DNA of 64,000 bases from an uncultured Ignavibacteriales bacterium (GCA_964523575.1 CAZGAV010000011.1:2294-66293); one strand, 5' to 3'. Positions 4,820 through 58,569 are shown, counted from the first letter of the stretch. Notes: generated from the sequence alone by a model not told the origin. Made by a program: numbers and translations.

Positions 4820-5251
4820 CTACCAGCCTCTCTTCTTCATAATATCGGACATTTTGGCCTCGAGGCCTTGTTCGAAAAGGAGCATCTTTTTTTGTTGGGC
4901 CTCGCTGATTTTACCCATAAGGGTCGTCAAGTCGGCCGGTTTTTCGAGAAAATCGACCGCGCCCATCTTGACCGCCTCGACGCCCTTTTCGACCGTCGCA
5001 TGCCCGGTCAGGAAAATTATCTGAAGATCCTTGTTGGTCTCGAGCATCTGTTTGAGGGTTTCAAAGCCATCCATTTCCGGCATGGCCATATCGAGAATAA
5101 CGGCGTCATACGATTTTTTCTTGATCATTTCCAGCGCCTGCATACCGCTTTCGGCGGTATCGACCATCAGCCCGCGGTTTCGCATCCGCTCGGCTATAAC
5201 GCTCGAGAATTCGGTCTCATCATCGACAATCAATACATTCGCACTCGCCAT
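4820..5251 (-). CDS. Stand-alone response-regulator receiver protein
   Basis: VLIVDDE acidic pocket, ILDMAMPEMDG phospho-acceptor context, FLTGHA, EKP lysine. No output domain. Confidence 0.9.
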   Translation of the reverse strand: MASANVLIVDDETEFSSVIAERMRNRGLMVDTAESGMQALEMIKKKSYDAVILDMAMPEMDGFETLKQMLETNKDLQIIFLTGHATVEKGVEAVKMGAVDFLEKPADLTTLMGKISEAQQKKMLLFEQGLEAKMSDIMKKRGW

Positions 5252-5331
5252 ATCCGTCCCTCTCTATCATTATATAAATTATTTACGAATCCCCATCCAC
5301 CGCCCGATAGCAAAATTCCGTTATTCGACTA

Positions 5332-5997
5332 TCAACCGGGCAATTCGAGGCGCACGGTGATTTTCTCCGGCGACTTCTGCAGTTCCGCCGATCCGGACAA
5401 CGCTTCCATGATGCGCTGAATATCGGCCGGATCGACAACCGGGCCGTCCTGAGTTCCGGCCGGGCCTTCGACGATAATTTCCACGCGGCCGCCACCCCGG
5501 TTGATCGCGATGGTCAATATATCACCTTTATGGGCCGATGACAGAATCATGCGGATAGCCGCAAACACGGCTTGTTGCAAATAAAACGGATTACTTTCGA
5601 TCTCGCCGGGGTCTTCGGCCGGCCGGGATTCCAATGTCACCCCCCGGAGGACTGCCAGCCTCCGGCTCAATTCGATCAGGTTGTTCAAAGTCTCATTAAT
5701 ATCGAATTTCTGCCTGGGCTGGTCGGCGCTGTGGGCGAAACGGTTCAGCCGTTTTATTATTCCCAGACCGCGGGCGGCCTGAGCCTGCAGGGAGGTTACT
5801 ATCCGGGCCAGTTTTTCGGCGGTGATTTTGATCTCCTCTTCCGATCCGGTCAGACGATCTTCGAGCAATCCCGTGGTCTGATCCATGATGGCTATGACAT
5901 TGTTGAGTTCATGGGAGACCGAGGCCGTGATGGCGCCGAAGAAGGCGAGACTACTGTCGCGGAGAGGGTCGTTTTGATATTTCAGTTCATCGTCCAT
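5332..5997 (-). CDS. HisKA-containing protein with degenerate ATPase domain
   Basis: H-box SVSHELNNVIAIMDQ. The C-terminal ~100 aa has the length of a HATPase_c domain, but I cannot find N, G1 or G2 boxes. No TM segments. Confidence 0.7.
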   Translation of the reverse strand: MDDELKYQNDPLRDSSLAFFGAITASVSHELNNVIAIMDQTTGLLEDRLTGSEEEIKITAEKLARIVTSLQAQAARGLGIIKRLNRFAHSADQPRQKFDINETLNNLIELSRRLAVLRGVTLESRPAEDPGEIESNPFYLQQAVFAAIRMILSSAHKGDILTIAINRGGGRVEIIVEGPAGTQDGPVVDPADIQRIMEALSGSAELQKSPEKITVRLELPG

Positions 5998-6007
5998 AAT
6001 TCCGCGA

Positions 6008-6376
6008 TTATTTATCGCGAATAACCTCCTCCATTTTCAAGATCAAATCTTCGATATTGATCGGTTTGACAAGATAATCGCGGGCTCCGGCCGGCTTTTC
6101 GAAAGATTGATTGATCGGCGAACCGTGACCGGTGATCAGCAGAACCGGAAGGTCGGGATTGGCCTGATTGATGCGCCGCAAAACCTCGAGGCCGTCCATG
6201 CCGGGCAGTTTCAAATCGAGCACGACGACGTCGAATTTTTCGCCTCCGATTTTGCGCAAGGCCTCGTGACCATCGAGCGCATAAGCCGCTTCGATATCCC
6301 GGTAGCTGAGCCGCTCGACCATCGTGCTGACCAGCTCTTCCTCGTCGTCAATCAGCAGGGCCTTGAATTTCGGCAT
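6008..6376 (-). CDS. Stand-alone response-regulator receiver protein
   Basis: LLIDDEEE, VVLDLKLPGMDG, LITGHGS, VKP. 122 aa. Confidence 0.9.
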   Translation of the reverse strand: MPKFKALLIDDEEELVSTMVERLSYRDIEAAYALDGHEALRKIGGEKFDVVVLDLKLPGMDGLEVLRRINQANPDLPVLLITGHGSPINQSFEKPAGARDYLVKPINIEDLILKMEEVIRDK

Positions 6377-6390
6377 GATAATTCTCCCGG

Positions 6391-8097
6391 TTAGGCGGTT
6401 TGTACGGGCAGGATAACGATGAAGCGAGTGCCCTTGCCGAGCTCGCTCTCGACCTCAATTTTGCCGCCCAGTTTTTCGACGATATCCCGAGTGATCGACA
6501 ATCCCAGACCGGTGCCGAATTCCCGCTTGGTGGAGAAGAACGGCTCGAAAATATGCTGTAGATTTTCAGCCGGGATACCGGTGCCGTTGTCGGTCACGGC
6601 GATGGTCACCGAATCGCGGTCGGGGCAGGCGACCGAGATATCGACTTTGCCGTCGGAATCGACGGCGGCGAAAGCGTTGTTGATAAGGTTCAATAACACC
6701 TGCTGCAACTGCCCCCGGTCGCTGACGATAGACGGCAAATCGTCGGCGAAATCGTAGGTAATATTGATATTGCGATGCAAGGCCTCGGTGCGCTGGAACC
6801 CGACAACCTCATCGATCAATTCCCGGATGTTGATCTGTTCCCGCCGAATTTCCATCCGTTTGGCAAAACCCAGCAGGCGATGGGTGACCTTACTGCACCG
6901 GTCCACCGACTTGACGATAGAATTCACCAGCCCCAGCATCTTTTCCCTCTGCGGAAACTCGGCCGAAAACCCGACCAGGTCATGAATCAATCCGGCTTTT
7001 TCATTGATGATGGCCATCGGGTTGTTGATCTCATGGGCGACACTGGCGGCCATGCGGCCGATGGTGGCCATTTTATTGGTGTATTCCATATTATGAAATT
7101 CTTTGGCCCGCCGCAGGTCGGCCTCACGCAGTTTCTTGGTCATATGATCGGCGCCATAGATGATAACCAGCAGAATCAAGGCCGTGCTGACTGCCAGAAA
7201 CCAGAGCACCTGAGAACGGTGCCCCAGCCAGTGACTGAAATGACCCTCGAGCCGTTTGATGACGATTAATACAAAAGGTGATCCTTCAATCTGCGTGTAT
7301 CCGGAAACTACCCATTTACCCTCCTCCCGGTTTTCCTCGACAATTTCCCGGGCACTGGACATCGGAGGCACTTCGATGGCCGCTTTTTTAAGAGCGGGAC
7401 CGTAAAAAACCGAGGCCGTCTGCAGGATGCCGTCCTTGTTCATGATGAAGGCGTCGGTGTAGCGGTCGAGATTGAGCGAATAGACCTGGCGGTTGAGCAA
7501 TTCCATATCGAGGGTCGCCCGGAGGATATAGAAACCGCCGGGATTACGGTCGTGCTTGAAGGCAATCACGAAATGGGGAAAATTCCGATATCCCATAAAG
7601 ACGTCGCTGACATAAGAACCGCGAAGGACGACTTCATGAAACCAGGACTGGTCTTCATAACTGCGGTTCTTCAGGTCATAGGGACCGGTATAATAGGACT
7701 GCAGGCCGGTCGAATCAATCAAGCCGAGATCGATAAAACCGCCGAAGGAGTTTTTGAGATTACGCAGGGTCGAAGCCAGGGCCGAATCGCTTTCCAAAGC
7801 CCGGTGCTCATGTTCGCTGATCACCAGCGCCAGCGCCGAGCGCCTTTCCTCAATCACCGATTCGAGAGTGCGTTTGGTATTGGACAGAATCTGAGTCACG
7901 GCGTAATGGCTTTCGGTCCGGTAGGCATCCTTGTCCTGGAGATAATTGATGATGGTCAGGACCACCAGCGGGGCCAGGGCGACCAAAAAGGTGATGACGA
8001 TGATGTTGCGCCGCAAACGGCGATATTGCGGAAATTTGGTCCCGACCAACTCCGGCGGCAAATTGTGCTCTTCGAATTTTTTCTTCTGGCGACTCAT
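6391..8097 (-). CDS. Membrane sensor histidine kinase with Cache-like extracytoplasmic domain
   Basis: Two TM segments flank a ~250-aa sensor domain. H-box AASVAHEINNPMAII; N box LLNLINNAFAA; G boxes DNGTGI and GTGLGLS. Confidence 0.9.
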   Translation of the reverse strand: MSRQKKKFEEHNLPPELVGTKFPQYRRLRRNIIVITFLVALAPLVVLTIINYLQDKDAYRTESHYAVTQILSNTKRTLESVIEERRSALALVISEHEHRALESDSALASTLRNLKNSFGGFIDLGLIDSTGLQSYYTGPYDLKNRSYEDQSWFHEVVLRGSYVSDVFMGYRNFPHFVIAFKHDRNPGGFYILRATLDMELLNRQVYSLNLDRYTDAFIMNKDGILQTASVFYGPALKKAAIEVPPMSSAREIVEENREEGKWVVSGYTQIEGSPFVLIVIKRLEGHFSHWLGHRSQVLWFLAVSTALILLVIIYGADHMTKKLREADLRRAKEFHNMEYTNKMATIGRMAASVAHEINNPMAIINEKAGLIHDLVGFSAEFPQREKMLGLVNSIVKSVDRCSKVTHRLLGFAKRMEIRREQINIRELIDEVVGFQRTEALHRNINITYDFADDLPSIVSDRGQLQQVLLNLINNAFAAVDSDGKVDISVACPDRDSVTIAVTDNGTGIPAENLQHIFEPFFSTKREFGTGLGLSITRDIVEKLGGKIEVESELGKGTRFIVILPVQTA

Positions 8098-8139
8098 CCC
8101 GCACCATAGAAAAAAGGAACGCCCCGAAGGTTTCCGGGG

Positions 8140-9399
8140 CTAAGAACTTTTCTTATCCTCACCGCCTTCGGTGTCGTGGCCGCGATCGACCGCTTTCATA
8201 TCGCTGGCCTTTTTGTAGGCGGCTTTCATCACCTGCGCCAGCTTGTCGATATTGACTGGCTTTTCGAGGTAGGCAAAAGCGCCCAGCTCTTCGGCGGTGG
8301 TTTTCTCCCGCTCCGATCCATGGCCGGTCAGGATGATCACCTCAACTTCCGGATGATCATTTTTAACCCGCCGCAAAACCTCGATGCCGTTTATGCCGGG
8401 CATCATCAAATCCAGCACCATAACGTCGGGCGCGTCTTTGGCCAGCATATCCAGCGCCTGTTCGCCGTCGTAAGCGATGGCCGAAGCCAGATCGCGCGTT
8501 TGAAGCCGTTCTGAGAGGGTGTGCACGAACTCTTTTTCATCGTCCACCAGAAGAAACCGCGGCGGGACTTCGATATTCGACCAGGGATTGATCGACGGCG
8601 TCTGATATTTGGGGCCGATCCGGGTGCTGACTTCCCTGACTCCCTCAACATCGGACGCGATTTCCATCAACTTTTCCTGATGGCGTTTCATCCGCACCAT
8701 GTAATCGTTGATAAGCAGAACCACACTGCCGTTTTCGGATTGGACCTCGACGTCATGCCCGGCCTCGGTCAGAGCCCGGCTGACGGTGGCCGACAGCACG
8801 AAATCCCGCGCCGCCTGAAGCGAACGCTCCGTGCTTCGAACCGGTTCACTGCCGGCGTAATCGACGATCATCCGCACCGCCGTCTCCAGCGGCGTATCAT
8901 GCATGGGGACGACGATGTCATAGAGTTTTTCATCGTAGGCCGGCCGGTCGATCAGGCGGGTCGTGCAGGTGTAATTCTGCTTGTCGTCATTGTGTATCAA
9001 TTTTCGGGCGTCTTTGTCCGAAAGAGCCTTGAGCTTCATGGCCTGTTCGACCCGGTAATCGAGGTTGGCGATAATCAGGACCCGAAGAATATGCGGAATG
9101 GTCGTCGGCAGAAGATGGCCGGCGCATCCTCGGATGACGACGTTGTCGGCGACAACCAGTTCGGCCAGAACCAGCCTGAGAGCGGCGATATTTTTCTCCC
9201 ATTCGCGCGTCAGGCGATTAAAAAAAGGTTCGGCCCCGGACAACGAGCGTGTCAGTTTTTCCGGATCGATTTCGAACCGTTTTGAGGTCTCTTCGATGAG
9301 TTTTTGATCGAGACGTTGGTATCCAAGTTGTTCGGCCACCCGGGCCGCCACCTCATCGCCGTTGCAATACGTTCCGCTGAAAATCGTGATTATTGCCAC
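8140..9399 (-). CDS. Cytidylate-kinase-like / BON-like / receiver three-domain protein
   Basis: The N-terminus IITIFSGTYCNGDEVAARVAEQLGY resembles the cytidylate-kinase-like family with a lysine-less P-loop. The central segment VEVQSENGSVVLLINDYM...VEGVREVSTRI is BON-like. The C-terminal REC shows LLVDDEKE, VLDLMMPGINGIE, ILTGHGS, LEKP. Confidence 0.8.
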   Translation of the reverse strand: MAIITIFSGTYCNGDEVAARVAEQLGYQRLDQKLIEETSKRFEIDPEKLTRSLSGAEPFFNRLTREWEKNIAALRLVLAELVVADNVVIRGCAGHLLPTTIPHILRVLIIANLDYRVEQAMKLKALSDKDARKLIHNDDKQNYTCTTRLIDRPAYDEKLYDIVVPMHDTPLETAVRMIVDYAGSEPVRSTERSLQAARDFVLSATVSRALTEAGHDVEVQSENGSVVLLINDYMVRMKRHQEKLMEIASDVEGVREVSTRIGPKYQTPSINPWSNIEVPPRFLLVDDEKEFVHTLSERLQTRDLASAIAYDGEQALDMLAKDAPDVMVLDLMMPGINGIEVLRRVKNDHPEVEVIILTGHGSEREKTTAEELGAFAYLEKPVNIDKLAQVMKAAYKKASDMKAVDRGHDTEGGEDKKSS

Positions 9400-9750
9400 T
9401 GCCTTCTCCCTTGCGTCCCCTTCGCTTTTCCAACAATCGCATATTAATCTGTATGCCCATGAGAAGCAAGTACTAAAACTAAGCGCGCGTCCGGCCCCAA
9501 AGGCCCTGAAAATACCGGGAATACCATTACGGACGCCGCTTCTATCGGGATATTATTTATCCTCTTTTCATTTCAGAGTTCACTCTGACGATGCGGGGAA
9601 AAAAGGCTTGCTCCCTACCGGGTGCGTGGTTATTATGATGCCTGCAATAAGTATCGAATATCCGGGGTCGGGATGCATGACGAGTGGATGCGGCCGGGTT
9701 TGACCGCAAGCGGCCGGTCGACACGAATCAGGTAAGGTGAGGAAGTCGCC

Positions 9751-10308
9751 ATGGATAACATTCAAGCCGAAGATATCATGATCGCTCTGGACAGCTACCC
9801 CCATGTTCCCTATTGGTTTTCGCTTCGTCAGGCGATCGTCGAAATGGAAAAGGCTCAGCTTGAAGTTGACGGCCGCAAATCTCTGCCCCGGGTGGTGCTG
9901 GTGTTCGATGAACAGTACCGGCTGATGGGCATAGTCAGGCGGCGCGATATTCTCCGCGGTCTGGGGCCCAATGCCATGCAGGAATCCAAAGAACGGGCCG
10001 GCGAAACCGATCCTCGAATCAAGCGCGATCTGCGCGCTCCCGATGCCGCCGGGCGGGCCAGCATCGAGGATATCCGCAGGCGGGCCGAGCGCCCCGTCAA
10101 CGAGGTCATGACTCCGATTCGGGTGACCCTGGCCAGCGATACACCATTGATGGATGTGGCCAACACCATGGTCGTCCATAACGTCAGCATCATCCCCATT
10201 CTAAAAGACGGCGCCGTCGTGGGCGTGGTGCGTTCGACCGATGTTCTGCATCGAATCGATAAAGAAATCATGAGGGATTCGACGGCTAAGACCGATACAT
10301 CTGAATAG
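9751..10308 (+). CDS. CBS-pair domain protein (paralog 1 of 3)
   Basis: 185 aa. It aligns by eye over its full length with the ORFs at 54817 and 55449. It carries CBS-type beta-alpha-beta motifs and ends ...IPILKDGAVVGVVRSTDVL. Confidence 0.85.
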   Translation: MDNIQAEDIMIALDSYPHVPYWFSLRQAIVEMEKAQLEVDGRKSLPRVVLVFDEQYRLMGIVRRRDILRGLGPNAMQESKERAGETDPRIKRDLRAPDAAGRASIEDIRRRAERPVNEVMTPIRVTLASDTPLMDVANTMVVHNVSIIPILKDGAVVGVVRSTDVLHRIDKEIMRDSTAKTDTSE

Positions 10309-10420
10309 AGACGGATGGCGGTTGAAGAGAAATTTTTCGATATGAGCGGCTTCGATTAAGGCTGCGCGGCGGGAGAATCAGTCGGCCGTGAGACTGAAAC
10401 TGTCACAACGGGGTAATTGA

Positions 10421-12634
10421 GTGGCTTCAAAAAAGATCCTGCGGATATTTCCCTTTCTGGGCTGGTTTGAGAAATACACCGTCGATAAACTGCGATCGGA
10501 CCTGATTTCCGGCCTCACCGTCGCTCTGGTGCTGGTGCCGCAGTCGATGGCTTATGCGCAGCTGGCGGGCTTACCGGCTTATTACGGTCTTTACGCCGCT
10601 TTCCTGCCTCCGATGGTGGCCGCCCTGTTCGGGTCCAGCCGCCAACTGGCCACCGGCCCGGTGGCGATCGTCTCCCTGATGACGGCGACGGCTCTGGAAC
10701 CGCTAGCCACGGCCGGCAGTGACATGTACATCGTATACGCCATTCTGCTGGCTTTGCTGGTCGGGCTGTTCCAATTAATGCTGGGCGTCCTCCGGCTGGG
10801 ACTGGTCGTCAATTTCCTTTCGCATCCGGTCGTCAACGGATTCACCAATGCCGCCGCCTTGATTATCGCCACTTCGCAATTATCCAAATTGTTCGGCGTC
10901 AACGTCGACAGCGCCGCCCATCACTATGAAACCGTTTACAATGTCATTAAGGCGGCATTTCAATATACTCACTGGCCGACTCTGGCGCTGGCGGCGCTGG
11001 CCTTTGCCATTATGATAATTTTACGGTACGTAAATCGCCGTATCCCCAACGTCCTGGCGGCGGTGGTCATCACCACCGTGATTTCATGGCTGACCGGTTT
11101 CGAACACAATTACAAGGCCGATCTCAGCCAGATAAAGTCGGAGATTTTTCATAGCCTGGTGCTGGTTTTCGATTCGGCCTGTGAGGGCCTGGCCGACAAA
11201 TCCGAGACCCGGGTGACGCTTCGAGACCAGTACAGCGCCACCGTCGATAATCAGGGACGGGATTCGTTTGATGCCATCCAGCTTTTATATAAATTACACA
11301 TCATCGACAGCGAAATCGAACGCCTCAAGGAGCAGTTGCGCGAATATCGTTCTGAAATGCGAGACTACTTCTTCAAGGCCGCCAATGTCGGCGGCGACAG
11401 TCTTGTTTTTTACGTGGCTGAAGAATTTCCCCCCGGGCTTCAGGCCTCCGGCGATCTATGGCGAATGAAAATCGGCAACAACCCCCTTAATCCCGCCGCG
11501 CTGACGATGACCGGCGGCGGCGCCGTGGTCGGAAATATTCCCAGCGGCCTGCCGTCCCTGAAAATACCGGGCTTTCCGGTTTCCACGGCGGTCGGTTTGA
11601 TTCCGATGGCGATGATTATCTCCCTCCTGGGTTTCATGGAAGCGATCTCCATCGCCAAAGCGATGGCGGCAAAAACCGGCCAGCGTCTCGACCCTAATCA
11701 GGAACTGGTCGGTCAGGGTCTGGCCAATATTGTCGGATCTTTCGGGCAAAGTTACGCCGTTTCCGGCTCGTTTTCGCGTTCGGCCGTCAACCTTCAGGCC
11801 GGCGGGGCCACCGGTTTATCGAGTGTTTTCAGCAGTCTGGTCGTGGCCGCGACTCTGCTGTTTTTCACGCCCCTGCTGTATCATTTGCCGCAATCGGTAC
11901 TGGCCGCTATCATCATGATGGCGGTGGTCGGTTTGCTGAACGTAAAGACTTTCATCCATTCCTGGCGGGCTCAGAAATACGACGGTATCATCGGTATCAT
12001 CAGCTTCCTTTTCACGCTCGCTTTCGCGCCTGATCTCGACCGCGGCATCATCATCGGTATCGGGCTGTCGCTTCTGCTGTATCTTCTGCGCAACATGAAA
12101 CCGGCTATCACGATGCTCTCTCTGCACCCCGACGGCACTTATCGGAGCCGGACTCGCTTCGGTCTTGATCAATGTCGCCATATCGCCGTCATCCGCTACT
12201 CCGGCTCGATTTTCTTCGCCAATGTCAGTTATCTCGAGGATCAGGTGCTGGAAACGGCGCGGTCGATGCCGGAACTGAAACATGTCCTCATCGTCGGCAA
12301 CGGCATCAATGAACTCGACGCCTCCGGCGAGGAAACCCTGGCCAGCCTCGTCGGCCGACTGCACGAGCAGGGCCTTGAGGTCTCCATGAGCGGTATCAAC
12401 GATGCCGTTCTGGACGCCATGAGACGCACGGGACTACTGGCTAAAATCGGCGAGGAAAATATTTACCGCAACGCCACCCGGGCCATCGAAAGTATCTGGG
12501 GGGCGGCCCATGAAAAATCTGATGAAATCGAATGTCCTCTTCGGATCATCCCCCTGAAGCATTTCCCGGTGGCCGATTCGGTCAAGGTCAGCCCGGCTAT
12601 CAGACCCGATCATCCCGATAATCGCCGCCGGTGA
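10421..12634 (+). CDS. SulP-family anion transporter with C-terminal STAS domain and a large internal insertion
   Basis: The N-terminus LRSDLISGLTVALVLVPQSMAYAQLAGLP is typical of SulP/SLC26. There is a STAS-like C-terminus (VIRYSGSIFFANVSYLED...). At 737 aa it appears longer than the SulP proteins I know (about 500-600 aa). Confidence 0.9.
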   Translation: MASKKILRIFPFLGWFEKYTVDKLRSDLISGLTVALVLVPQSMAYAQLAGLPAYYGLYAAFLPPMVAALFGSSRQLATGPVAIVSLMTATALEPLATAGSDMYIVYAILLALLVGLFQLMLGVLRLGLVVNFLSHPVVNGFTNAAALIIATSQLSKLFGVNVDSAAHHYETVYNVIKAAFQYTHWPTLALAALAFAIMIILRYVNRRIPNVLAAVVITTVISWLTGFEHNYKADLSQIKSEIFHSLVLVFDSACEGLADKSETRVTLRDQYSATVDNQGRDSFDAIQLLYKLHIIDSEIERLKEQLREYRSEMRDYFFKAANVGGDSLVFYVAEEFPPGLQASGDLWRMKIGNNPLNPAALTMTGGGAVVGNIPSGLPSLKIPGFPVSTAVGLIPMAMIISLLGFMEAISIAKAMAAKTGQRLDPNQELVGQGLANIVGSFGQSYAVSGSFSRSAVNLQAGGATGLSSVFSSLVVAATLLFFTPLLYHLPQSVLAAIIMMAVVGLLNVKTFIHSWRAQKYDGIIGIISFLFTLAFAPDLDRGIIIGIGLSLLLYLLRNMKPAITMLSLHPDGTYRSRTRFGLDQCRHIAVIRYSGSIFFANVSYLEDQVLETARSMPELKHVLIVGNGINELDASGEETLASLVGRLHEQGLEVSMSGINDAVLDAMRRTGLLAKIGEENIYRNATRAIESIWGAAHEKSDEIECPLRIIPLKHFPVADSVKVSPAIRPDHPDNRRR

Positions 12635-18097: not shown

Positions 18098-18152
18098 GAC
18101 CTTTCTCCTCTAAGCAAGTGGTGGATGATTATTATTTTCTGATCATGATAAA

Positions 18153-18168
18153 AGCAAATAATGTGCCC
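18153..18168 (-). promoter_or_regulatory. Sigma-54 (-24/-12) promoter upstream of the REC-HPF gene
   Basis: The minus strand reads GGGCACATTATTTGCT with correct GG-N10-GC spacing. It lies about 55 nt upstream of the start codon at 18097. Confidence 0.65.
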
Positions 18169-18316
18169 GTATAAATCAATTGCCGCACAACGACTTAAAT
18201 GCAGACGGAATGTGTTATTCTTCCCCATTGGGGCGAATTGCCTCAAATGACGGGCAACAAAACCAATCTACGATAAATGCAGGAGATAGCCGAAATGCCG
18301 AGAAATCACCCGGCTT

Positions 18317-19687: not shown

Positions 19688-21162
19688 CCTCTCTCCTCGG
19701 CCGGCAGGTAAATCGTAAATCGAGTGCCTTTACCCACCGTGCTTTCGACGGCAATCCATCCCTTGTGTTCCTCGATTATTCCGTAGGCGATTGACAGTCC
19801 CAGCCCGGTCCCCTGTCCGACATCCTTGGTCGAAAAGAAGGGATCGAAAATGAGGTTCAGATTTTCGGGAGCTATGCCCTCGCCCTGATCGGTAATATCG
19901 ATGGCCAGATAATCGCGCTCGGCGGCATCGGCGTGGGCCAGATTTTTGCGGCGATCGGGATACAATTTTATCTCAACGGTTCCGCCCCGGGGCATGGCCT
20001 GGATGGCGTTCATGACGAAATTCATCAGAACCTGCTGAATCTGCGATTGATCGACCGATACTCCCGGAGATTCGCCCTCTTCCACCAATTTCAATGTGAC
20101 CCTGGCCTTACCGGCCATCGGCCGCAGAAGATCCAGAACCTGACTGCACAACTGGCGCATGATCGTTGACATCCGGTGCGTCTGCCGCCGTCGCGCGAAA
20201 TCGAGCAATTGCCGGATAATCCTGATAATCCTCTCAGTCTGCTCGACAATGATGCGCGAATAGTCGCCGATCTCCTCCGAATCCAGTTTCTCGGTGCTCA
20301 ACAGCTTGGCCCGACCGGTAATAACATTCAAGGGAGTACCCAGTTCATGAGCGACGCCGGAGGCCAGCCGGCCGACCGTGGCCAGGCGCTCGGTGTGCCG
20401 CAATTGCTCCATGGTCGACAGCCGTTTTTCGACTTCGGCCCGCAGTTTCTCGCGGGAAAGCTGCAGCTGGGCGCACATCTGATTTAAAGCCCCGGCCAGC
20501 TGCGATAATTCGTGGTGGCCGGAAAGTGTCAGGTCGCAAGAGAAGTTTCCCTGCCCGATCCGCCGGGTTTTTTCCACCAGTTGTTTCAACGGCTGGCCGA
20601 CATATCGGTTACCGAGAATCCATAAAAAACCCAGACCCAAGAGGATCAGGACGACCGACAGAATGACGACCCGGATGGCCGTTTCCCTGGTATAATGCCG
20701 CAGACTGCCCATCGGTTCTTCCAGTTCAATGGCGCCCAGCTTCATATCTTTTGCATTGACCGGGACATAGGTGCGCATGAACTGGCGACCGTACTCATCG
20801 ACATAATGCAACGAAGTATCCCGGCCCTGTTCCACGGGGAGAAGATATTCGGGCCGGACATCGGGCGGCAAAGTCGGTTCGCTCACGCTGCTGGGATAAA
20901 TCCAGCGAATGCGGATACTGTTTTCGGCGCGGTTGATTTCATGAATTCGCCGCAACGCCCGTTCGGGATTATTCTGGAACATCGCCTCGGATACCATGCC
21001 TCCGGCCAATTGACCCAGCTGGACGGCTGTGGATTGCATATTATTGTGGAAAAGATCTATTTCGCGCCGCACCGATAAATAACCGTCGATGACGATCGTA
21101 AGCAGAATAATCGGAAATAATACAATCAGTAATTTTAGCGTCAGTCGCATAGGCCTGTCCAA
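19684..21162 (-). CDS. Membrane sensor histidine kinase (periplasmic domain + HAMP + HisKA + HATPase)
   Basis: Two TM segments flank a ~150-aa loop, followed by a HAMP-like linker. H-box SGVAHELGTPLNVI; DQGEGI and GTGLGLSIA boxes. There is a 4-nt overlap with the activator gene. Confidence 0.9.
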   Translation of the reverse strand: MDRPMRLTLKLLIVLFPIILLTIVIDGYLSVRREIDLFHNNMQSTAVQLGQLAGGMVSEAMFQNNPERALRRIHEINRAENSIRIRWIYPSSVSEPTLPPDVRPEYLLPVEQGRDTSLHYVDEYGRQFMRTYVPVNAKDMKLGAIELEEPMGSLRHYTRETAIRVVILSVVLILLGLGFLWILGNRYVGQPLKQLVEKTRRIGQGNFSCDLTLSGHHELSQLAGALNQMCAQLQLSREKLRAEVEKRLSTMEQLRHTERLATVGRLASGVAHELGTPLNVITGRAKLLSTEKLDSEEIGDYSRIIVEQTERIIRIIRQLLDFARRRQTHRMSTIMRQLCSQVLDLLRPMAGKARVTLKLVEEGESPGVSVDQSQIQQVLMNFVMNAIQAMPRGGTVEIKLYPDRRKNLAHADAAERDYLAIDITDQGEGIAPENLNLIFDPFFSTKDVGQGTGLGLSIAYGIIEEHKGWIAVESTVGKGTRFTIYLPAEERG

Positions 21163-21212
21163 TTTATCCTAATAGAATACTCAATATTGCGGCGGAAAAC
21201 TCCAAAGTCAAG

Positions 21213-48929: not shown

Positions 48930-49272
48930 CGACAGCCCTCAACCATCGAATCGAGTAATTGTCCTTTTTCCGCCTTCATCCCCGTCGCACCGAACTCAAG
49001 GAATAATTAAACGCTTGTTCAATTAGCCGCTCTGCCTTATTTTATACTCAAACCGCAGGATACTTCAGCCGACATAGGTTATAGACACAAGTCGGCAACG
49101 AAGCTTTGACAAGCCGCGCGGCGCCGTTGAACAGAATTTTTCTGGTGAGGGGGATCACCGGTTCCATCGGTTCTCGCCCGGGCATCGGTTTAAAATTGAA
49201 CGCCGACGACAGGAGGCGGTCGAAATTGTCTATTGGCAGGCAATGGGCGAGATGTATATCTCGGGCGGAAGT

Positions 49273-52953: not shown

Positions 52954-52982
52954 TTGACAACCCTGAACCGCAGGAGTATCCT
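52954..52982 (+). promoter_or_regulatory. Sigma-70-like promoter upstream of the second sensor kinase module
   Basis: TTGACA (52954-52959), a 17-nt spacer, then TATCCT (52977-52982). This assumes the organism uses an E. coli-like housekeeping consensus. Confidence 0.4.
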
Positions 52983-53089
52983 AACGCGGGTAGGCAGTAG
53001 CCGATCCCGGCCGTGGTTTTTGAAAAAGAGTGACTTGAGCTCAATCTTTGTTTCCTGCCGGGGGCAGGATTTTTGGGGCGCGAGGAGTG

Positions 53090-54763
53090 ATGAGAGCAGA
53101 GTCGTCCCCGGGGTACGCTCCTTTCACGAAGGAGCACTATAGAGAACTCAGGCGAAAAACCGTCGTTCGCCTCCTGGTCACCTATCTGGCGCCGTTGATT
53201 CTTTTAGCGGCGTATTTTTTTTACCAGTATGACGCCATGCTCACCGAGGGCCGCCGCCTGCATCTGCGGGCCATCGCCGAAAATCAGGCCAATATCCTCG
53301 ACCTGTTTCTTTCGGAACGGCTGGTCAACCTTTCCAATCTGATCGACGATCCTAAGTTTGAAATCGCGCCGGCCCCCGTCAAACTTCAGGCCTATCTCGA
53401 CAATCTCCAGAAAAGCAGCAAGGCCTTCGTCGATATCGGTTCTTTCGATTCCTCAGGCGTCCAGGTGGCGTATGCCGGCCCCTACCCTTCGCTGGAAAAA
53501 CGCAATTACAGTTCCGAAGCCTGGTATCAGGCGCTCAGGAAAAAGCACGATAATTTCATCATCACCGATATTTACCTGGGATTTCGTCAACAGCCCCATT
53601 TTACCATCGCCGTCAGCCGTCTCATTGACGGCCAGTATATCGTCCTGAGAGCCACCCTCAGCCCGGAAAAAATTTACGAATATATCAGCGGGCTGGAAGG
53701 CTCCAACGAAGTCTTCACCTCGATTGTCAACAAGGCCGGATTTTATCAGGTGGCGACCCCCAATATCGGCACGCCGCTTCAGACTTCATCGATCGTGCCC
53801 CCCGAAACGCCCCGGCTGGGGACGGAGAAGGTTGATATTTCCGGCACCGATATCACCTATGCCTACTCCTGGCTCCGCACCGCCGATTGGGCCTTGACGG
53901 TGCAGTGGTCGGGCCCAGTCGATCAGGGATTGTTGACGGCTTTCGAATGGCGTCTTATTATCATCTCGCTGGTCGTCATCGGCCTTATCTTCGTCATTAT
54001 TATCAGCCGCGCCCGTAAACTGGTTGACCTGCAGATGGAATCGGATCGCACCCGGGCCCAGTTGGAACATGCCGCCAAGCTGGCCTCAGTCGGCGAACTG
54101 GCCGCCGGAATCGCCCATGAAATCAACAATCCCCTGGCCGTCATCAGCGAGGAAGCCGGCTTGATGAAGGATCTGATGAATCCGGAATTCGGAACGCCGA
54201 TTCAAAACACCGAACTAGTTCCTCATCTGGACAACATCAGCGAGTCGGTCTTTCGGTGCCGCGATATTACCCGCAAACTCCTGGGGTTTGTCCGCAAAAC
54301 CGATATCGATCTGCGCCGCCATAATATCCATACGATAATCGACGGCGTCGTTGACGGCCTGCTCGGTCCGGAGTTGGCCGTTTCCAATATCGAGGTCATC
54401 AGGCAATACGGCCGCGACATCCCCGAGCTGGTTACCGATCGCAACCAGCTTCAGCAGGTGTTACTCAACATCCTCAACAACGGTATCGATGCGATTGCGG
54501 GACGCGGCAAAATCACCATTACCACCTCCCTCGAAGGCAAGAGGGTTAAGATAACCATGACTGACACCGGCAAGGGTATAAGGCCCCAACATCTGGATAA
54601 AATTTTCATGCCCTTCTTCACGACCAAGGAGGTCGGCAAGGGCACCGGACTGGGGTTGTCGGTCAGTTACGGCATCATCAAAAATCTCGGTGGAGAGATT
54701 GCTGTGGAAAGCACGGTCGGCGTCGGGACGAGGTTTACGATTAAACTCTCGATCCGGCCTTGA
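53090..54763 (+). CDS. Membrane sensor histidine kinase with Cache-like domain (paralog of 6391..8097)
   Basis: It has the same architecture as the first kinase and aligns with it by eye (e.g. FVDIGSFDSSGVQVAYAGPY vs FIDLGLIDSTGLQSYYTGPY). H-box AAGIAHEINNPLAVI; DTGKGI and GTGLGLSVS boxes. The start is uncertain (the track gives 53048). Confidence 0.9.
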   Translation: MRAESSPGYAPFTKEHYRELRRKTVVRLLVTYLAPLILLAAYFFYQYDAMLTEGRRLHLRAIAENQANILDLFLSERLVNLSNLIDDPKFEIAPAPVKLQAYLDNLQKSSKAFVDIGSFDSSGVQVAYAGPYPSLEKRNYSSEAWYQALRKKHDNFIITDIYLGFRQQPHFTIAVSRLIDGQYIVLRATLSPEKIYEYISGLEGSNEVFTSIVNKAGFYQVATPNIGTPLQTSSIVPPETPRLGTEKVDISGTDITYAYSWLRTADWALTVQWSGPVDQGLLTAFEWRLIIISLVVIGLIFVIIISRARKLVDLQMESDRTRAQLEHAAKLASVGELAAGIAHEINNPLAVISEEAGLMKDLMNPEFGTPIQNTELVPHLDNISESVFRCRDITRKLLGFVRKTDIDLRRHNIHTIIDGVVDGLLGPELAVSNIEVIRQYGRDIPELVTDRNQLQQVLLNILNNGIDAIAGRGKITITTSLEGKRVKITMTDTGKGIRPQHLDKIFMPFFTTKEVGKGTGLGLSVSYGIIKNLGGEIAVESTVGVGTRFTIKLSIRP

Positions 54764-54816
54764 TAAATAAAGCGAAGGCGGCCGGGAAACCGGACGCCGG
54801 TTTTTAATGCAAGGGT

Positions 54817-55371
54817 TTGGCTATGGATTCAAAAACGGTTAAAGACCTTATTGTGCCGCTCGACCAGTACGCGGTGGTGCCCGAAAGCGCGACCGTACTG
54901 GATGCCATCCGGGTCCTCAAGCTGGCCCGTGCCCAGACGTCGCCGGATCGCCACCTGCCTCGCGCCGTCGTGGTCATTGATGAAAACGAAGTCGTTATCG
55001 GACAGATTGGGCATCTCGATTTTCTCGGCGCCCTGGAACCCGCCTTTCCGCCCCGGGGCGATATTGATGTCATGACCCGGGCCGGCGTGGACGATGCTTT
55101 ACTGGATTCGGTCGTCGAAAGTCAGCGTTTCTGGCAAGGCAACCTTGACGACGCCTGTCGCCGGGTGCGGGGGATAAAGGTCACCGCAATCATGCACCCG
55201 GTCACCGACAGCATCGACGAAATGGCATCCATCTGGGATGCTATCCGCAAAATTGTCAAGATCGGGGCCATGCGCATGCTGGTTTTGAGCGGCGGTGACG
55301 TCGTCGGAATCGTGCGCCTGGCCGATCTGTTTGCCGAAATAGCCGATTGCATCGACACCGTCGAGGAGTAG
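54817..55371 (+). CDS. CBS-pair domain protein (paralog 2 of 3)
   Basis: 184 aa. TVKDLIVPLDQYAVVPESATVLDAI... aligns with the ORFs at 55449 and 9751. Confidence 0.85.
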   Translation: MAMDSKTVKDLIVPLDQYAVVPESATVLDAIRVLKLARAQTSPDRHLPRAVVVIDENEVVIGQIGHLDFLGALEPAFPPRGDIDVMTRAGVDDALLDSVVESQRFWQGNLDDACRRVRGIKVTAIMHPVTDSIDEMASIWDAIRKIVKIGAMRMLVLSGGDVVGIVRLADLFAEIADCIDTVEE

Positions 55372-55448
55372 CCGCGCCGGAGAATCAACGGCGCGAAAGT
55401 GTGATTATTAACCATTGACCCGGTGATACCCGGCCGGGAGGAAGGTCG

Positions 55449-56006
55449 ATGGATACTAAAATAGTGAAAGATTTGATGGTGCCGCTCGACGAATACGCAG
55501 TGGTGCCGGAAGAAGCCACTCTGCTGGACGCCATCAATGCCCTGGAGGCGGCGCAGAAACGCCTGCCCGAGGGACGTCAGCCGCACCGGGCGGTTCTGGT
55601 TGAGGGCAAAGATAAAAGAATCATCGGGAAAGTCGGCCAATTGGCTTTCCTCAAAGCGCTGGAGCCCAAATACAATGTCCTTGGAGATATGGAAATGCTG
55701 GCCCGGGCCGGCGTCCAGCCCGATTTCATTTCGTCGATGATGGAAAATTATCAATTCTTCCAGGACAGCCTGTCCGACTTATGCTGGCGGGGTCGAAATA
55801 TCCGGGTGCGGGATGTCATGCGCCCGGTTGCCGAACATATTGACGAGAAGGCCTCGTTGCGAGAGGCCATCCATCAGATTATCATGTTGCAGACGCTCTC
55901 GATTCTGGTCACGCGCGGCCGGGAAGTCATCGGTCTTTTGCGACTTTCCGACTTGTATGAGGAAGTGGCCGCCCAGATAAAGAACGCGCCGAGCGACTGC
56001 GAATAA
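55449..56006 (+). CDS. CBS-pair domain protein (paralog 3 of 3)
   Basis: 185 aa. IVKDLMVPLDEYAVVPEEATLLDAI.... Tandem duplicate of the preceding gene. Confidence 0.85.
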   Translation: MDTKIVKDLMVPLDEYAVVPEEATLLDAINALEAAQKRLPEGRQPHRAVLVEGKDKRIIGKVGQLAFLKALEPKYNVLGDMEMLARAGVQPDFISSMMENYQFFQDSLSDLCWRGRNIRVRDVMRPVAEHIDEKASLREAIHQIIMLQTLSILVTRGREVIGLLRLSDLYEEVAAQIKNAPSDCE

Positions 56007-56024
56007 CATCGGGGGATACATAAG

Positions 56025-58058
56025 ATGCCAAGAGTCCTTCTGGTAGACGATGAAGATAAATTCCGCGAATCGATGGCCAGCCGCCTGCGATTGCGCGGCT
56101 ATGATGTCGTAGATGTGACCAACGGCGAGGACGCCATCAAAAAAGTGAGAAGCGACGACGAAATCGACGTCGTCGTTCTGGACCGCAAAATGCCGGGGAT
56201 GAGCGGCGAGCAAACGCTCAAGGAAGTTCGAACCTTCCGCCCGGCCATTCAGGTAATCATGCTGACCGGTCACGGGTCGCTGGGTTCGGCCATGGAGGTC
56301 GGCAAACTGGAGGCTTTTTCCTATTTGCAGAAACCATGCGAACTGGAAGATTTGATCAAGACCATCGAAGAGGCCCGGGAAAACAAAGTCTTCGCCATGG
56401 AGCGCTACGAAATTCCGCGCGTTGAAAAAGGCTCAGCCTGGAAATGGCTCAAAGGTTCGCACAATTCCCGGCCCGGGGTCATTATGCTGGCGGTTCTGGT
56501 GTTTATTGGCATCCTCGCCCTGCCGACGCCGAAACGGCTGATGCAAATCGTCTCGGCCCCCAAAACCGGGCAGTTGACCGACTCCAACATGGGATACGCC
56601 AGTTACCGGAAGATGAAAGACGGCGAAACTATCGCCGATTATTACAGCAAATCTTCCGGCATGGGCGTCACCCGGGTCGACGCCGACGGCAAGAAAATTT
56701 CCGAACCTCTGCCGCCGAAGGGAGTCGCCTTCAAAGCCCGCGTTATGCTGGGCATACTGGTTGTGGCCGCCATGTTCTGGGCCACCGGCGCCATTCCGGT
56801 CGGCGTCACCGCCCTGCTGGTGGGCGTCTTCATGTACTTCTTCGGCATCCTCAAACCCGATGATATCGCGGCCGCCTATGCCAAAGACTCGGTTATCTTC
56901 ATTTTCGGAGTGCTGGCCATTTCGCTGGCCATAAGCAAAACCGGACTCGACCGGCGCATCGGCCTCTTGCTTCTGGGACCGGCCAAAAATCTGGGCCGGT
57001 ATCTTTTCATTTTTCTGCCGCTACTGGGTATCGCCTGCTCGTTTGTTTCTGAGCATGCCCTGATCGCCTTCATCATGCCGCTTTTCATTATGGTTTATGC
57101 TTCCTCGGTCCGCGCCGCCGGGCTCAAAAAGGATCGGGCTTTGGCGGTCTTGTTTATCCTGTCGGCCTGCTATGTGGCCAACTGCGGCGGCCCCGGTTCG
57201 CCGGCCGCGGGCGGACGCAACGCCGTCATGCTCGGTATCCTCACCGACTACGGCATCGCTCCCTCTTTCGGGCAATGGGTGAAATACGGACTGCCGTTCG
57301 TGCCCGTTATGGCGCTGGTGATCGCGCTCTATTTTTATCTGACGTTCCGGCGAAAATTGAAAGTGACCAACCTCAATATTTCATCGCTGGTGCGGCAGGC
57401 CTCGGAAAAAATCGGGCCGATGAATAAAAATGAATATCTGACGGCGGCGACCCTGATTCTCCTGATCTTCCTCTGGATCACGGCCAGCGACCTCTACGGT
57501 CTGGGCGGGCCGGTGATACTCTGCATCGTCCTGCTCAATATCATGCGTATCCTGCGCTGGCGCGACATCGCCTCCATTCCCTGGGATGTGGTCGCCCTCT
57601 ATGCCAGCGCCACCGCTCTGGGCAAGGGCCTGGCCGTAACCGGCGCGGCCCTGTATATGGCCGACGGTTTTATCAATCTTATGCCCGATTTTCTGACTCA
57701 CGGCACCGGGCTGGCCATTGCCGCCAGCATCTTCACCGGCATCGCCACCAATTTCATGAGCGACGGCGCCACCGTTTCGGCTATCGGGCCGATCACGGTG
57801 CCGATGGCGACCATTTCCGGGACTCATCCCTGGATGGTCGGGCTATCGACGGCTTTCGCCTCATCCTTCGCCCACATGCTGATTATCGGAACTCCCAACA
57901 ACGCCATCGCCTATGCCATGGCCAAGGACCCGGTGACCGGAGAACAAATGGTAACCCTGGGCGATTTCCTGAAACATGGTTCGGCTATTTTGCTCCTGTC
58001 ATTCGTCGTCCTGTGGTTCTGGACTTTCCTGGGCTACTGGCGCATACTTGGATTTTAG
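56025..58058 (+). CDS. Response-regulator receiver fused to an SLC13/DASS-CitMHS-type (ion-transporter superfamily) permease
   Basis: Residues 1-120 form a complete REC (LLVDDEDK, VVVLDRKMPGMSG, MLTGHGS, LQKP). After a linker comes a ~440-aa polytopic domain with FWATGAIPVGVTALLVG and the re-entrant-loop-like motifs CGGPGSPAAGGRNAV and IIGTPNNAIAYA. Confidence 0.88.
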   Translation: MPRVLLVDDEDKFRESMASRLRLRGYDVVDVTNGEDAIKKVRSDDEIDVVVLDRKMPGMSGEQTLKEVRTFRPAIQVIMLTGHGSLGSAMEVGKLEAFSYLQKPCELEDLIKTIEEARENKVFAMERYEIPRVEKGSAWKWLKGSHNSRPGVIMLAVLVFIGILALPTPKRLMQIVSAPKTGQLTDSNMGYASYRKMKDGETIADYYSKSSGMGVTRVDADGKKISEPLPPKGVAFKARVMLGILVVAAMFWATGAIPVGVTALLVGVFMYFFGILKPDDIAAAYAKDSVIFIFGVLAISLAISKTGLDRRIGLLLLGPAKNLGRYLFIFLPLLGIACSFVSEHALIAFIMPLFIMVYASSVRAAGLKKDRALAVLFILSACYVANCGGPGSPAAGGRNAVMLGILTDYGIAPSFGQWVKYGLPFVPVMALVIALYFYLTFRRKLKVTNLNISSLVRQASEKIGPMNKNEYLTAATLILLIFLWITASDLYGLGGPVILCIVLLNIMRILRWRDIASIPWDVVALYASATALGKGLAVTGAALYMADGFINLMPDFLTHGTGLAIAASIFTGIATNFMSDGATVSAIGPITVPMATISGTHPWMVGLSTAFASSFAHMLIIGTPNNAIAYAMAKDPVTGEQMVTLGDFLKHGSAILLLSFVVLWFWTFLGYWRILGF

Positions 58059-58080
58059 GTTTAAAGAAGAGAGGTAATCC

Positions 58081-58569
58081 ATGCCGGATAAAATCAAATT
58101 GCTGATCGTCGATGACGAGGTCAAATATCTGGACTCGATCGCCCAGCGATTAGAATTGCGCGGCTTCGACGTCACCAAGGCATCCAGCGGAGCGGCCGCC
58201 CTTGATGCCGCCAAGGCGGGCAAATTCGATCTGGCCCTGCTTGATCTGAAAATGCCGGGCATGGACGGCACCGAAGTGCTGGCCCGCCTGAAGCAGGAGC
58301 ATAAATTCCTCGAGGTGATTATCCTCACCGGACACGGCTCACTGGACTCGGCGGTCGAATGCACCAAGCTGGGCGCCTTCGGCTATCTGCCCAAACCGTA
58401 CGAGCTGGATAATCTCCTGAGTGTGATCAGGCAGGCCTATGAGGCCCGCCTCAAGAAAAAATTCGAGCTCGACGCGGCGCGAATGGATAAAATCGCCGAA
58501 ATCGCACTCGGCTCCAGCGCCCTGGGCATTCTGCGCGAATTGTCGAAGCTGGACAACGAAGAAAAATAG
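58081..58569 (+). CDS. Stand-alone response-regulator receiver with short helical C-terminal extension
   Basis: LLIVDDEVK, ALLDLKMPGMDG, ILTGHGS, LPKP, plus a ~40-aa tail. Confidence 0.9.
   Translation: MPDKIKLLIVDDEVKYLDSIAQRLELRGFDVTKASSGAAALDAAKAGKFDLALLDLKMPGMDGTEVLARLKQEHKFLEVIILTGHGSLDSAVECTKLGAFGYLPKPYELDNLLSVIRQAYEARLKKKFELDAARMDKIAEIALGSSALGILRELSKLDNEEK

Follow-up and report, generated by a model that had tools for sequence, protein, structure and literature searches.

Carriers of the DASS (SLC13) and SulP (SLC26) families are regarded as sulfate carriers in sulfate reducers (PMC5840216). Clusters encoding such sulfate transporters have been described in Desulfobacteraceae, namely in Desulfosarcina variabilis (Dvar_38230/38430) and Desulfobacula toluolica (TOL2_C19430-C19470), and the authors of that study offer as a speculation that external sulfate is sensed by the kinase, and adenosine 5′-phosphosulfate (APS)/ATP or the energy status by the CBS protein (Sci Adv 2025, PMC11887813). 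Here, we analyzed a stretch of 64,000 nt from an uncultured Ignavibacteriales bacterium (GCA_964523575.1 CAZGAV010000011.1:2294-66293), referred to as the window, which carries two gene modules of related composition, module A (4820..12634) and module B (53090..58569, plus strand). Compared by description, the Desulfobacteraceae clusters share with these modules a DASS or SulP carrier accompanied by Cache kinases, response regulators, and small CBS proteins; they also contain Usp proteins, and the CBS gene there adjoins the Na/sulfate symporter gene. Their regulators are described as WalR-type DNA-binding proteins, indicative of transcriptional control, whereas no DNA-binding domain was detected with Pfam and NCBIfam in any of the five receiver proteins of modules A and B. 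The cassette in the window resembles clusters already described in Desulfobacteraceae, and it is set apart by a fusion of receiver and carrier in module B and by a putative relay in module A that ends in a protein with a cytidylate kinase (CK)-like part, a BON domain, and a receiver. Our literature search found no paper mentioning a receiver domain together with the DASS family, and Marietou 2018 makes no mention of CBS or two-component genes near the transporters of sulfate-reducing microorganisms.

Other known systems share individual properties with the two modules. The yeast proteins Pho90, Pho87, and Pho91 also carry a cytoplasmic regulatory domain at the N-terminus of a DASS-fold carrier; unlike the phosphorylatable receiver found here, their SPX domain senses inositol pyrophosphate, and they are eukaryotic proteins with phosphate as substrate. 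GlnK and SbtB are small nucleotide-sensing regulators that are encoded beside their transporters and plug them. The modules resemble GlnK-AmtB and SbtB-SbtA in that the gene of a small soluble regulator lies beside the carrier gene and the pair is kept across phyla while the neighbors vary, but the regulator is a CBS pair instead of a PII fold, and its binding to the carrier is a prediction. A Bateman module serves as cytoplasmic sensor of a transport protein also in MgtE, CNNM/CorC, ClC, and OpuA/OpuC, whereas the CBS pair of the window is a separate protein of 175-185 aa with a helical insert of about 50 aa. To our knowledge, no case of CBS regulation of DASS or SulP carriers has been documented. 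Finally, DctB/DctD and DcuS-DctA likewise dedicate a double-Cache kinase and an NtrC-family receiver to an anion carrier. In contrast to the proteins found here, which have no AAA+ or HTH domain, DctD activates transcription via sigma-54, and the carrier families differ.

The most economical reading of modules A and B appears to be control at the level of the carrier by an external input, passing from kinase to receiver, and an internal input through the CBS protein. We assign a probability of about 0.55 to the view that both modules are signal-transduction cassettes which act on the anion carrier itself and not, or not only, on transcription. It is favored because the CBS-carrier pair is invariant, a receiver is fused to the carrier, the regulatory inputs are swapped between loci, and DNA-binding domains were not detected. 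Module B comprises the following features:

53090..54763, plus strand: sensor histidine kinase, likely coding sequence within an open reading frame (ORF) of 53048-54763 (Pfam dCache_1 56.6 bits, HisKA, HATPase_c)
54817..55371, plus strand: CBS-pair protein B1, 184 aa (Pfam CBS)
55449..56006, plus strand: CBS-pair protein B2, 185 aa (Pfam CBS)
56025-58058, plus strand: fusion of Response_reg and Na_sulph_symp, 677 aa (Pfam)
56025..56405, plus strand: fused receiver domain, aa 1-127 (Pfam Response_reg 88 bits)
56406..56714, plus strand: linker with first transmembrane (TM) helix (aa ~150-177) and periplasmic alpha/beta unit (aa 178-230), from the AlphaFold2 (AF2) model
56715..58058, plus strand: DASS/SLC13 elevator-type carrier core, aa 231-677 (Pfam Na_sulph_symp 138.5 bits)
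58081..58569, plus strand: single-domain response regulator REC162, 162 aa (Pfam)

The central element of module B is the receiver-SLC13 fusion, in which Pfam assigned residues 4-114 to Response_reg and residues 231-672 to Na_sulph_symp/CitMHS. Its 120 best relatives showed 70-88% identity, and those with a name were from metagenome-assembled genomes (MAGs) of Zixibacteria, the group to which we assign the genome of the window. In all 120 orthologues the receiver residues D8, D9, D53, T81, K103, and P104 were invariant, as were the linker residues E129, S137, W141, G144, R149, P150, and G151, which favors a coupling element over a loose tether. The nearest solved structures to the fused receiver were the receivers of NtrC1, NtrC, and DctD. 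The AF2 model of the fusion (pLDDT 78.9) contained the receiver, the linker and TM helix, the periplasmic unit, and the DASS core in the order listed above, and the top 39 Foldseek matches were NaS1, NaCT, NaDC1/3, VcINDY, INDY, AtDiT, and Pho90, all with a probability of 1.00. Model and matches agree on a DASS elevator fold. The similarity to Pho90 was structural (TM-score up to 0.73 on the target), while the sequence similarity was low (42 bits). The SLC13 core aligned to VcINDY over its full length with about 100 bits. Since this alignment begins after the first helix of VcINDY, the extra helix of the fusion is probably the equivalent of TM1, which would place the receiver in the cytoplasm. 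Because the receiver is joined to this first TM helix via the invariant linker, phosphorylation of Asp53 should alter carrier activity. Being a natural fusion, the protein lends itself to a direct test of whether an elevator transporter is under phospho-control.

The family assignment of the carrier core depends on the model used. With Pfam Na_sulph_symp, the score of 138.5 bits was far above the gathering score of 27 bits, whereas with TIGR00785 of NCBIfam it was 181.6 bits at a cut-off of 198.6. The two Ser-Asn-Thr hairpin motifs, which bind Na+ and substrate in VcINDY, were absent from the fusion. According to the VcINDY alignment they are replaced by S342-E343-H344 and S579-D580-G581, and both replacements were invariant or nearly so in the 120 orthologues. 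The loss of the canonical motifs and the invariant acidic residues at both hairpin tips would also suit a protein with a mainly sensory role, i.e., a transceptor or co-sensor comparable to SAC1 of Chlamydomonas or DctA for DcuS, which reports anion flux to the two-component system while the free receivers are the real outputs and act elsewhere. A second free receiver is indeed nearly always co-encoded, and the fused receiver could act as a phosphate sink. Against such a role, the carrier core is strongly conserved over the 677 aa with an intact DASS fold, and the free receivers are without an evident output domain. Moreover, the pattern x-[ED]-H / S-[DNA]-G occurred in at least 40 DASS clusters at 50% identity (P0361-P0508), many of them without a regulatory domain, as would be expected of a subfamily that transports with another coupling ion. 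We therefore regard a mainly sensory function as unlikely. Provided that the proposed control of the carrier holds, these clusters would amount to a large DASS clade whose binding-site motifs are non-canonical.

To analyze gene order around the fusion, we scanned metagenomes, which yielded 480 relatives, and kept 80 loci, of which different subsets were evaluable for each type of neighbor. Outside this set, the module B order of Cache kinase, one or two CBS genes, receiver-SLC13, and REC162 was present in L001, L088, L089, and L090, three of which are from Zixibacteriota and one of which is a metagenome contig. In the 80 metagenome loci, the carrier was receiver-fused in 80 of 80 loci. Of 42 evaluable loci, 40 had a kinase gene upstream of the fusion, and in 39 of these the kinase carried a Cache sensor; from this adjacency phosphorylation of the receiver by the kinase is predicted. 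A small receiver gene followed the fusion in 54 of 66 loci. A CBS gene was adjacent in 32 of 40 loci, with one copy upstream in 28, two copies upstream in one, and a position after the small receiver in three. The other eight had no CBS gene nearby, which indicates that the CBS protein is not obligatory for a receiver-SLC13 carrier. Single examples are L096:4232-8550, which encodes kinase, receiver-SLC13, and REC without a CBS gene, and L166:4170-9062, in which the CBS gene (8523-9062) is placed after the small receiver. Further receiver-SLC13 clusters were found at 30-58% identity when representatives at 50% identity were searched. In P0369 (692 aa), a close DASS relative with identical SEH/SDG motifs, an N-terminal Usp domain replaces the receiver.

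The intergenic gaps in module B of 18-77 nt are consistent with a single operon. The kinase at its start consists of a TM segment, a periplasmic double-Cache domain (dCache_1), a further TM segment, and HisKA/HATPase_c, and its core is AtoS/ZraS-like. Its ORF opens at TTG 53048, but the likely start codon is ATG 53090, since it is preceded by the ribosome-binding site GAGGAG; this agrees with the start given in the earlier note. The kinase leader contains a promoter-like sequence (TTGACA-17-TATCCT) at 52954-52982 and a GC-rich hairpin with a T-run at 53047-53075, just 5′ of the ribosome-binding site and start codon. The hairpin could be a leader attenuator; an Rfam search of the whole window, including this hairpin, gave no match.

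Module A pairs a CBS protein with a carrier of a different family, and this pair is divergent from a minus-strand set of five signalling genes:

4820..5251, minus strand: REC143, single-domain response regulator, 143 aa, the counterpart of REC162 (Pfam)
5332..5997, minus strand: DHp protein, 221 aa, with a weak HisKA match only and without HATPase_c (Pfam)
6008..6376, minus strand: REC122, stand-alone receiver, 122 aa, phospho-acceptor residues kept (Pfam)
6391..8097, minus strand: dCache sensor histidine kinase of the double-Cache type, as in module B (Pfam)
8140..9399, minus strand: Cytidylate_kin2/BON/receiver protein, 419 aa (Cytidylate_kin2 100 bits, Response_reg 95 bits, BON weak)
9751..10308, plus strand: CBS-pair protein A, 185 aa (Pfam CBS 52 bits)
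10421..12634, plus strand: SulP/SLC26 carrier with C-terminal STAS domain, 737 aa (Sulfate_transp 353.5 bits, STAS 47.6 bits)

The five signalling genes of module A contain the parts of a phosphorelay such as Spo0F-Spo0B-Spo0A or CckA-ChpT-CtrA, i.e., a kinase, a stand-alone receiver, a DHp protein, and terminal receivers. Unlike in these relays, the terminal regulators are not transcription factors, and phosphotransfer is a prediction. Aligned to ZraS, the 221-aa DHp protein shows a DHp part and a degenerate catalytic domain. Reading by eye, we found its H-box (SHELNN) to be present and the N, G1, and G2 boxes to be lost. As the H-box is kept and the ATP-binding boxes are lost, the protein would occupy the position of Spo0B or ChpT, and we propose that it is a histidine phosphotransferase; a comparison with the PDB revealed no similarity to Spo0B or ChpT themselves. 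REC122 is proposed to be the first acceptor, in the position of Spo0F, and the Cytidylate_kin2/BON/receiver protein is a candidate for the terminal response regulator of module A. Its CK-like part, again read by eye, has no Walker-A motif GK[ST] and is for this reason probably not a kinase. The signalling layouts of the two modules differ, a putative multi-step relay in module A and a simple kinase-receiver pair in module B.

The earlier note on this DNA had described the two modules as paralogous, and its domain assignments and gene orders were all confirmed by Pfam and ORF analysis. It had also stated that the kinases are alike in their sensor and catalytic parts, which proved correct: they were 34% identical over 561 aa (E = 8.5e-91), and the sensor halves alone were 29% identical over 318 aa (E = 1e-29). 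The two catalytic cores matched each other with 179 bits, compared to about 100-128 bits against the third kinase of the window or kinases of other loci. Likewise, the three 184-185-aa CBS proteins are collinear paralogs as proposed. B1 and B2 shared 45% identity (E = 2e-53), and protein A was 25% identical to the B proteins (E = 2e-9 and 6e-8). An hhalign comparison of the A and B profiles covered 174 columns end to end with a probability of 99.3% (E = 1.6e-20). Matches to solved CBS pairs lay mainly in the second CBS motif (query positions ~100-170), whereas the homology between A and B spans the whole 175-aa architecture including the helical insert. The similarity is hence above the generic family level, as the kinases share a sensor domain and the CBS proteins a full-length architecture.

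The receivers, five of them with Pfam Response_reg scores of 88-106 bits, were 34-45% identical, and an eight-sequence alignment showed D8, D9, D53, T81, K103, and P104 to be kept throughout. The best match of REC143 in the other module was REC162 (39.8% identity). The signature (I/M)LTGHGS...KP noted before in the five receivers is present, but the claim that it is unusual did not hold: FixJ, NtrC, and Spo0F have the same pattern, and it was dropped as a marker. REC162 has a C-terminal tail of about 40 aa, which is conserved in L001 and similar to the tail of REC143 in module A. Both tails (REC143, 4820-5251, minus strand; REC162, 58081-58569, plus strand) have the common motif A-[RK]-M-[DS]-[KD]-[IL], which is also kept in L001 and hints at a possible downstream target in common.

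The small CBS proteins scored 36.7-52.1 bits with Pfam CBS. The AF2 model of B2 (pLDDT 86.6) showed a Bateman module with a helical insert of lower confidence (residues 64-115). Foldseek returned 295 matches at E ≤ 0.001; those listed were all CBS-domain structures, and the neighbors were generic CBS pairs such as CBSX2, KpsF, DarB, MgtE, and ClC. B2 was closest to the single-copy CBS protein of L001, and loci with two CBS genes were rare (L090 and 1 of 40 metagenome loci). Since most loci have one CBS gene, comparison of the sequences identifies B2 as the probable counterpart of the usual single gene and B1 as a probable lineage-specific tandem duplicate. The A and B proteins are members of distinct subfamilies. 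The G-x-x-R-x-x-D motif of the second CBS domain (G162, R165, D168) was the only such motif conserved in both. The A-type proteins keep R63-R64-R65-D66 and have the subfamily motifs YPHVPYWF, LPRVVLVFD, and RRRD. The CBS proteins are predicted to sense nucleotides, with an adenosine-containing ligand. There is no NCBIfam model for the family. A-type CBS proteins are encoded in at least 388 species-representative genomes, and the named hosts are Zixibacteriota, Ignavibacteria, Calditrichota, Thermodesulfobacteriota and other Deltaproteobacteria, Planctomycetes, Acidobacteriota, Elusimicrobia, Nitrospirae, Omnitrophota, Latescibacterota, and Armatimonadetes.

From these genomes, 80 A-type loci were fetched, of which 75 were evaluable. 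The next gene on the same strand encoded an SLC13 carrier (505-560 aa) in 48 and a SulP-STAS carrier (730-760 aa) in 18 of the 75 loci, which represented more than 10 phyla, with gaps of -59 to 188 nt between CBS and carrier genes. Of the nine loci scored as having no carrier, at least one reflects a gene-calling miss. The CBS-carrier synteny expected by the earlier note was thus found beyond this genome, in 66 of 75 A-type loci and, as described above, in 32 of 40 receiver-SLC13 loci. A stand-alone CBS family of this breadth travels with either of two unrelated carrier families. A-type CBS-SLC13 pairs were also present in the Thermodesulfobacteriota MAGs L042, L056, and L060.

While the CBS-carrier pair was constant, the surrounding signalling genes came as two sets. 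Set 1 consists of a PEP-synthase-like gene, a PAS kinase gene, and a gene for a receiver protein of about 185 aa; of these, the PEP-synthase-like gene, at the least, occurred in about 50 of 80 loci. Set 2 corresponds to the five genes of module A; its partner carrier was SulP in L008, L009, and L011-L014 and SLC13 in L073 and L075. Orthologues of the module A kinase adjoin CBS-SulP or CBS-SLC13 in L008, L011-L014, L073, and L075, and as two ORFs in L009. The relay order of receiver, DHp protein, and receiver was kept in eight to nine loci, and the complete five-gene order recurred in Ignavibacteria-group and unclassified MAGs. In L075, five module A-type genes and CBS-SLC13 form one co-directional run, and in L073 the CBS-SLC13 cassette is followed at a distance of a few kb by a receiver-SLC13/REC162 pair. 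With these data, a chance juxtaposition of common signalling genes with transporters, in which the resemblance of the modules is generic, becomes extremely improbable. Receivers, histidine kinases, and CBS pairs all belong to very common families, and the cited receiver motif is generic, but the synteny counts refute this explanation, and neither the sensor-domain match nor the full-length CBS homology nor the recurring five-gene order agrees with it.

In a neighbor-joining (NJ) tree of the A-type CBS proteins, calculated without support values and thus only indicative, the group combining SulP and the relay, including the window, formed its own clade. SulP-linked subclades appeared several times among the SLC13-linked proteins, and the CBS proteins of L073 (SLC13) and L074 (SulP), both from the same genome, each grouped with their partner carrier type. 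This suggests that the partner carrier was swapped several times during the history of the A-type CBS proteins. The input domains were exchanged as well: besides the receiver-SLC13 and Usp-SLC13 fusions, Cytidylate_kin2/BON is joined to a CBS pair instead of a receiver in L021:5172-6533 (minus strand) and L023:2663-4024 (minus strand), both deltaproteobacterial-type MAGs. We interpret receiver-SLC13, Usp-SLC13, and CK-like/BON combined with receiver or CBS pair as interchangeable cytoplasmic inputs on one carrier-centered system. These fusions back the earlier proposal that receiver and CBS inputs converge on the carrier, and the view of a dedicated regulatory cassette beside the SLC26 and SLC13 families was supported by both tests run.

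A different explanation for the conserved neighborhood is co-expression only, in which CBS proteins and receivers act on targets other than the carrier (for instance the kinase, the PEP-synthase-like protein, or a metabolic enzyme) and lie beside it because they share a regulon, not because they form a complex with it. It would account for the eight receiver-SLC13 loci without CBS gene and for the other genes that follow the CBS gene in about 8 of 75 A-type loci, and CBS pairs regulate many kinds of proteins, with DarB of DarB-Rel among the structural matches. We nevertheless judge it quite improbable, as the signalling genes change around an invariant core of CBS protein and carrier, the gaps are short, the CBS lineages track the carrier type even within the one genome of L073 and L074, and the receiver is physically fused to the carrier.

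If control is exerted on the carrier, the modules could work as follows. The periplasmic double-Cache domain would detect an external solute, most likely the transported anion and probably sulfate or a related sulfur oxyanion, and the AtoS/ZraS-type kinase core would phosphorylate the FixJ/NtrC-type receivers. In module B, phospho-Asp53 of the fused N-terminal cytoplasmic receiver would directly change carrier activity, and the co-transcribed REC162 might serve as an additional output or as a sink for phosphate. In module A, a His-Asp-His-Asp relay beside the CBS-SulP/STAS pair is predicted to run from the kinase via REC122 and the DHp protein to REC143 and the CK-like/BON/receiver protein. 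The small CBS-pair proteins would be carrier-associated regulatory subunits comparable to GlnK-AmtB and SbtB-SbtA and would report an intracellular ligand, presumably an adenine nucleotide, possibly an APS-like one. The direction of transport, described as uptake in the earlier note, is likewise a presumption. Such a system would be a bacterial counterpart to SPX-Pho90 and the PII-type transporter regulators, and it touches the question of how the entry of anions, especially sulfate, is controlled in bacteria after carrier synthesis.

With respect to the substrate, sulfate or a related sulfur oxyanion has roughly even odds. It is favored because the motifs for carboxylate and Na+ are lost, DASS and SulP carriers are interchangeable, and Dsr or Sat/CysC genes flank some loci. 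The SulP protein of module A scored 453.7 bits with TIGR00815 (cut-off 380.45) and thus belongs to the sulP family, whereas it remained below the cut-offs of the DauA and BicA equivalogs, DauA being the second-best NCBIfam match. A hydrophilic, partly coiled-coil-like insert of about 125 aa (residues ~240-365) divides its Pfam match in two and was kept in 12 of 12 aligned CBS-linked SulP proteins, with motifs such as WR[LMI]K[VI]GN and GGGAVVG. Marietou 2018 describes a SulP group of sulfate-reducing microorganisms of about 710 aa with an insert of about 90 aa. With 25% identity to the fusion, the SLC13 carriers encoded behind A-type CBS genes represent a separate subfamily; their motifs are M-A-H and M-N-V. 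In L088:935-3398 (Zixibacteriota chromosome CP070796), genes for DsrC-family, DsrM-like, and DsrK-like proteins and then a MenG/UbiE methyltransferase gene directly precede the module B cluster and share its strand. The Dsr-type genes are 2-5 kb upstream of the cluster, and DsrC exceeded its cut-off. Zixibacteria MAGs with a full Dsr pathway have been reported (PMC10591310). A bifunctional Sat/CysC above the NCBIfam cut-off is encoded in L032:10447-12231, L033:13537-15267, and L038:13526-15256 (all minus strand), two genes from CBS-SLC13, downstream of it and on the opposite strand, together with an NAD-dependent sugar epimerase/dehydratase.

The same cassette logic could apply to a di- or tricarboxylate (succinate, fumarate, malate, or citrate), with DctB/DctD-like sensing wired to DASS and DauA-like SulP carriers. 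Double-Cache sensors such as DctB bind C4-dicarboxylates, both the DASS and SulP (DauA) families include dicarboxylate carriers, the receivers are of the NtrC/DctD type and the kinase cores of the AtoS type, and genes for aconitase B, citrate lyase alpha, L-aspartate oxidase, and 2-oxoacid oxidoreductase adjoin some loci. The PEP-synthase-like gene upstream in about 50 of 80 loci and the gene for a PpsR-type PPDK/PEPS regulator next to the cassette in L001 and L074 also point to carbon metabolism. In both DASS types, however, the two Na+/carboxylate motifs of VcINDY are replaced, SulP was assigned to sulP and not to DauA, Dsr and Sat/CysC neighbors occur in other loci, and the neighbor survey showed no dominant carbon-metabolism family. 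A carboxylate therefore seems a rather unlikely substrate, with about one chance in five. Among 119 further neighbors surveyed, no dominant extra family was present. None of the FAD-binding neighbors examined further proved to be AprA, the one identified being L-aspartate oxidase.

Several points weigh against carrier-level control of sulfate entry. DsrM and DsrK of L088 were below the trusted cut-offs, no sulfur-metabolism gene was found within the window, several related loci have carbon-metabolism neighbors, and the PEP-synthase-like gene is frequent. The fusion scored below the DASS cut-off of NCBIfam, the acidic residues at its hairpin tips could mark a sensor rather than a carrier, and eight of 40 receiver-SLC13 loci had no CBS gene nearby, with a position after the small receiver in three others. 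The physical coupling of the carrier to the CBS protein and to the receiver is itself something that we infer. In a tentative proposal, which we consider possible but doubtful, the fusion would be a response regulator with a secondary-active carrier as its output domain: Asp53 phosphorylation by the neighboring Cache kinase would directly gate the elevator motion of a sulfate carrier coupled to protons (E343/D580), and the CBS protein would add an intracellular energy or APS signal. The cassette and its A-type relatives, which occur in more than 10 phyla, would then supply the post-translational control of sulfate entry that is missing for uncultured sulfate or sulfite reducers. Control of sulfate entry in sulfate reducers bears on the rates of sulfate reduction and on isotope fractionation.

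The PEP-synthase-like protein of set 1 has about 850 aa (L003:142-2673; also L005, L016, L017, and about 50 of L008-L087) and is encoded upstream of CBS-SLC13 or CBS-SulP in other phyla. It comprises PPDK_N and a mobile His domain, has no PEP-binding domain, ends in an unassigned C-terminus of about 300 aa, and was below all NCBIfam cut-offs. Its stop codon overlaps the start of the PAS kinase gene, which is followed by the gene for the ~185-aa receiver protein. A Fis-type HTH motif considered for the latter was dropped, as Pfam and NCBIfam detect only the receiver. Neither PEP-synthase-like nor PpsR genes are present in the window.

In the remainder of the window, a gene for a Kup K+ transporter adjoins module A (2690-4588, minus strand). 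A third two-component system (17252-23735, minus strand) encodes a HAMP kinase, a sigma-54-dependent NtrC-type regulator, and an extra receiver protein of 281 aa, and it is adjoined by a gene for a P-type cation ATPase. The base composition was uniform along the window. Large secreted or surface proteins with dockerin/thrombospondin-type calcium-binding repeats are encoded at 26-1942, 25309-27726 (minus strand), and 49243-51642, the last of which, read by eye, contains about six repeats of about 85 aa with a conserved PGxCGA...DNCP motif.

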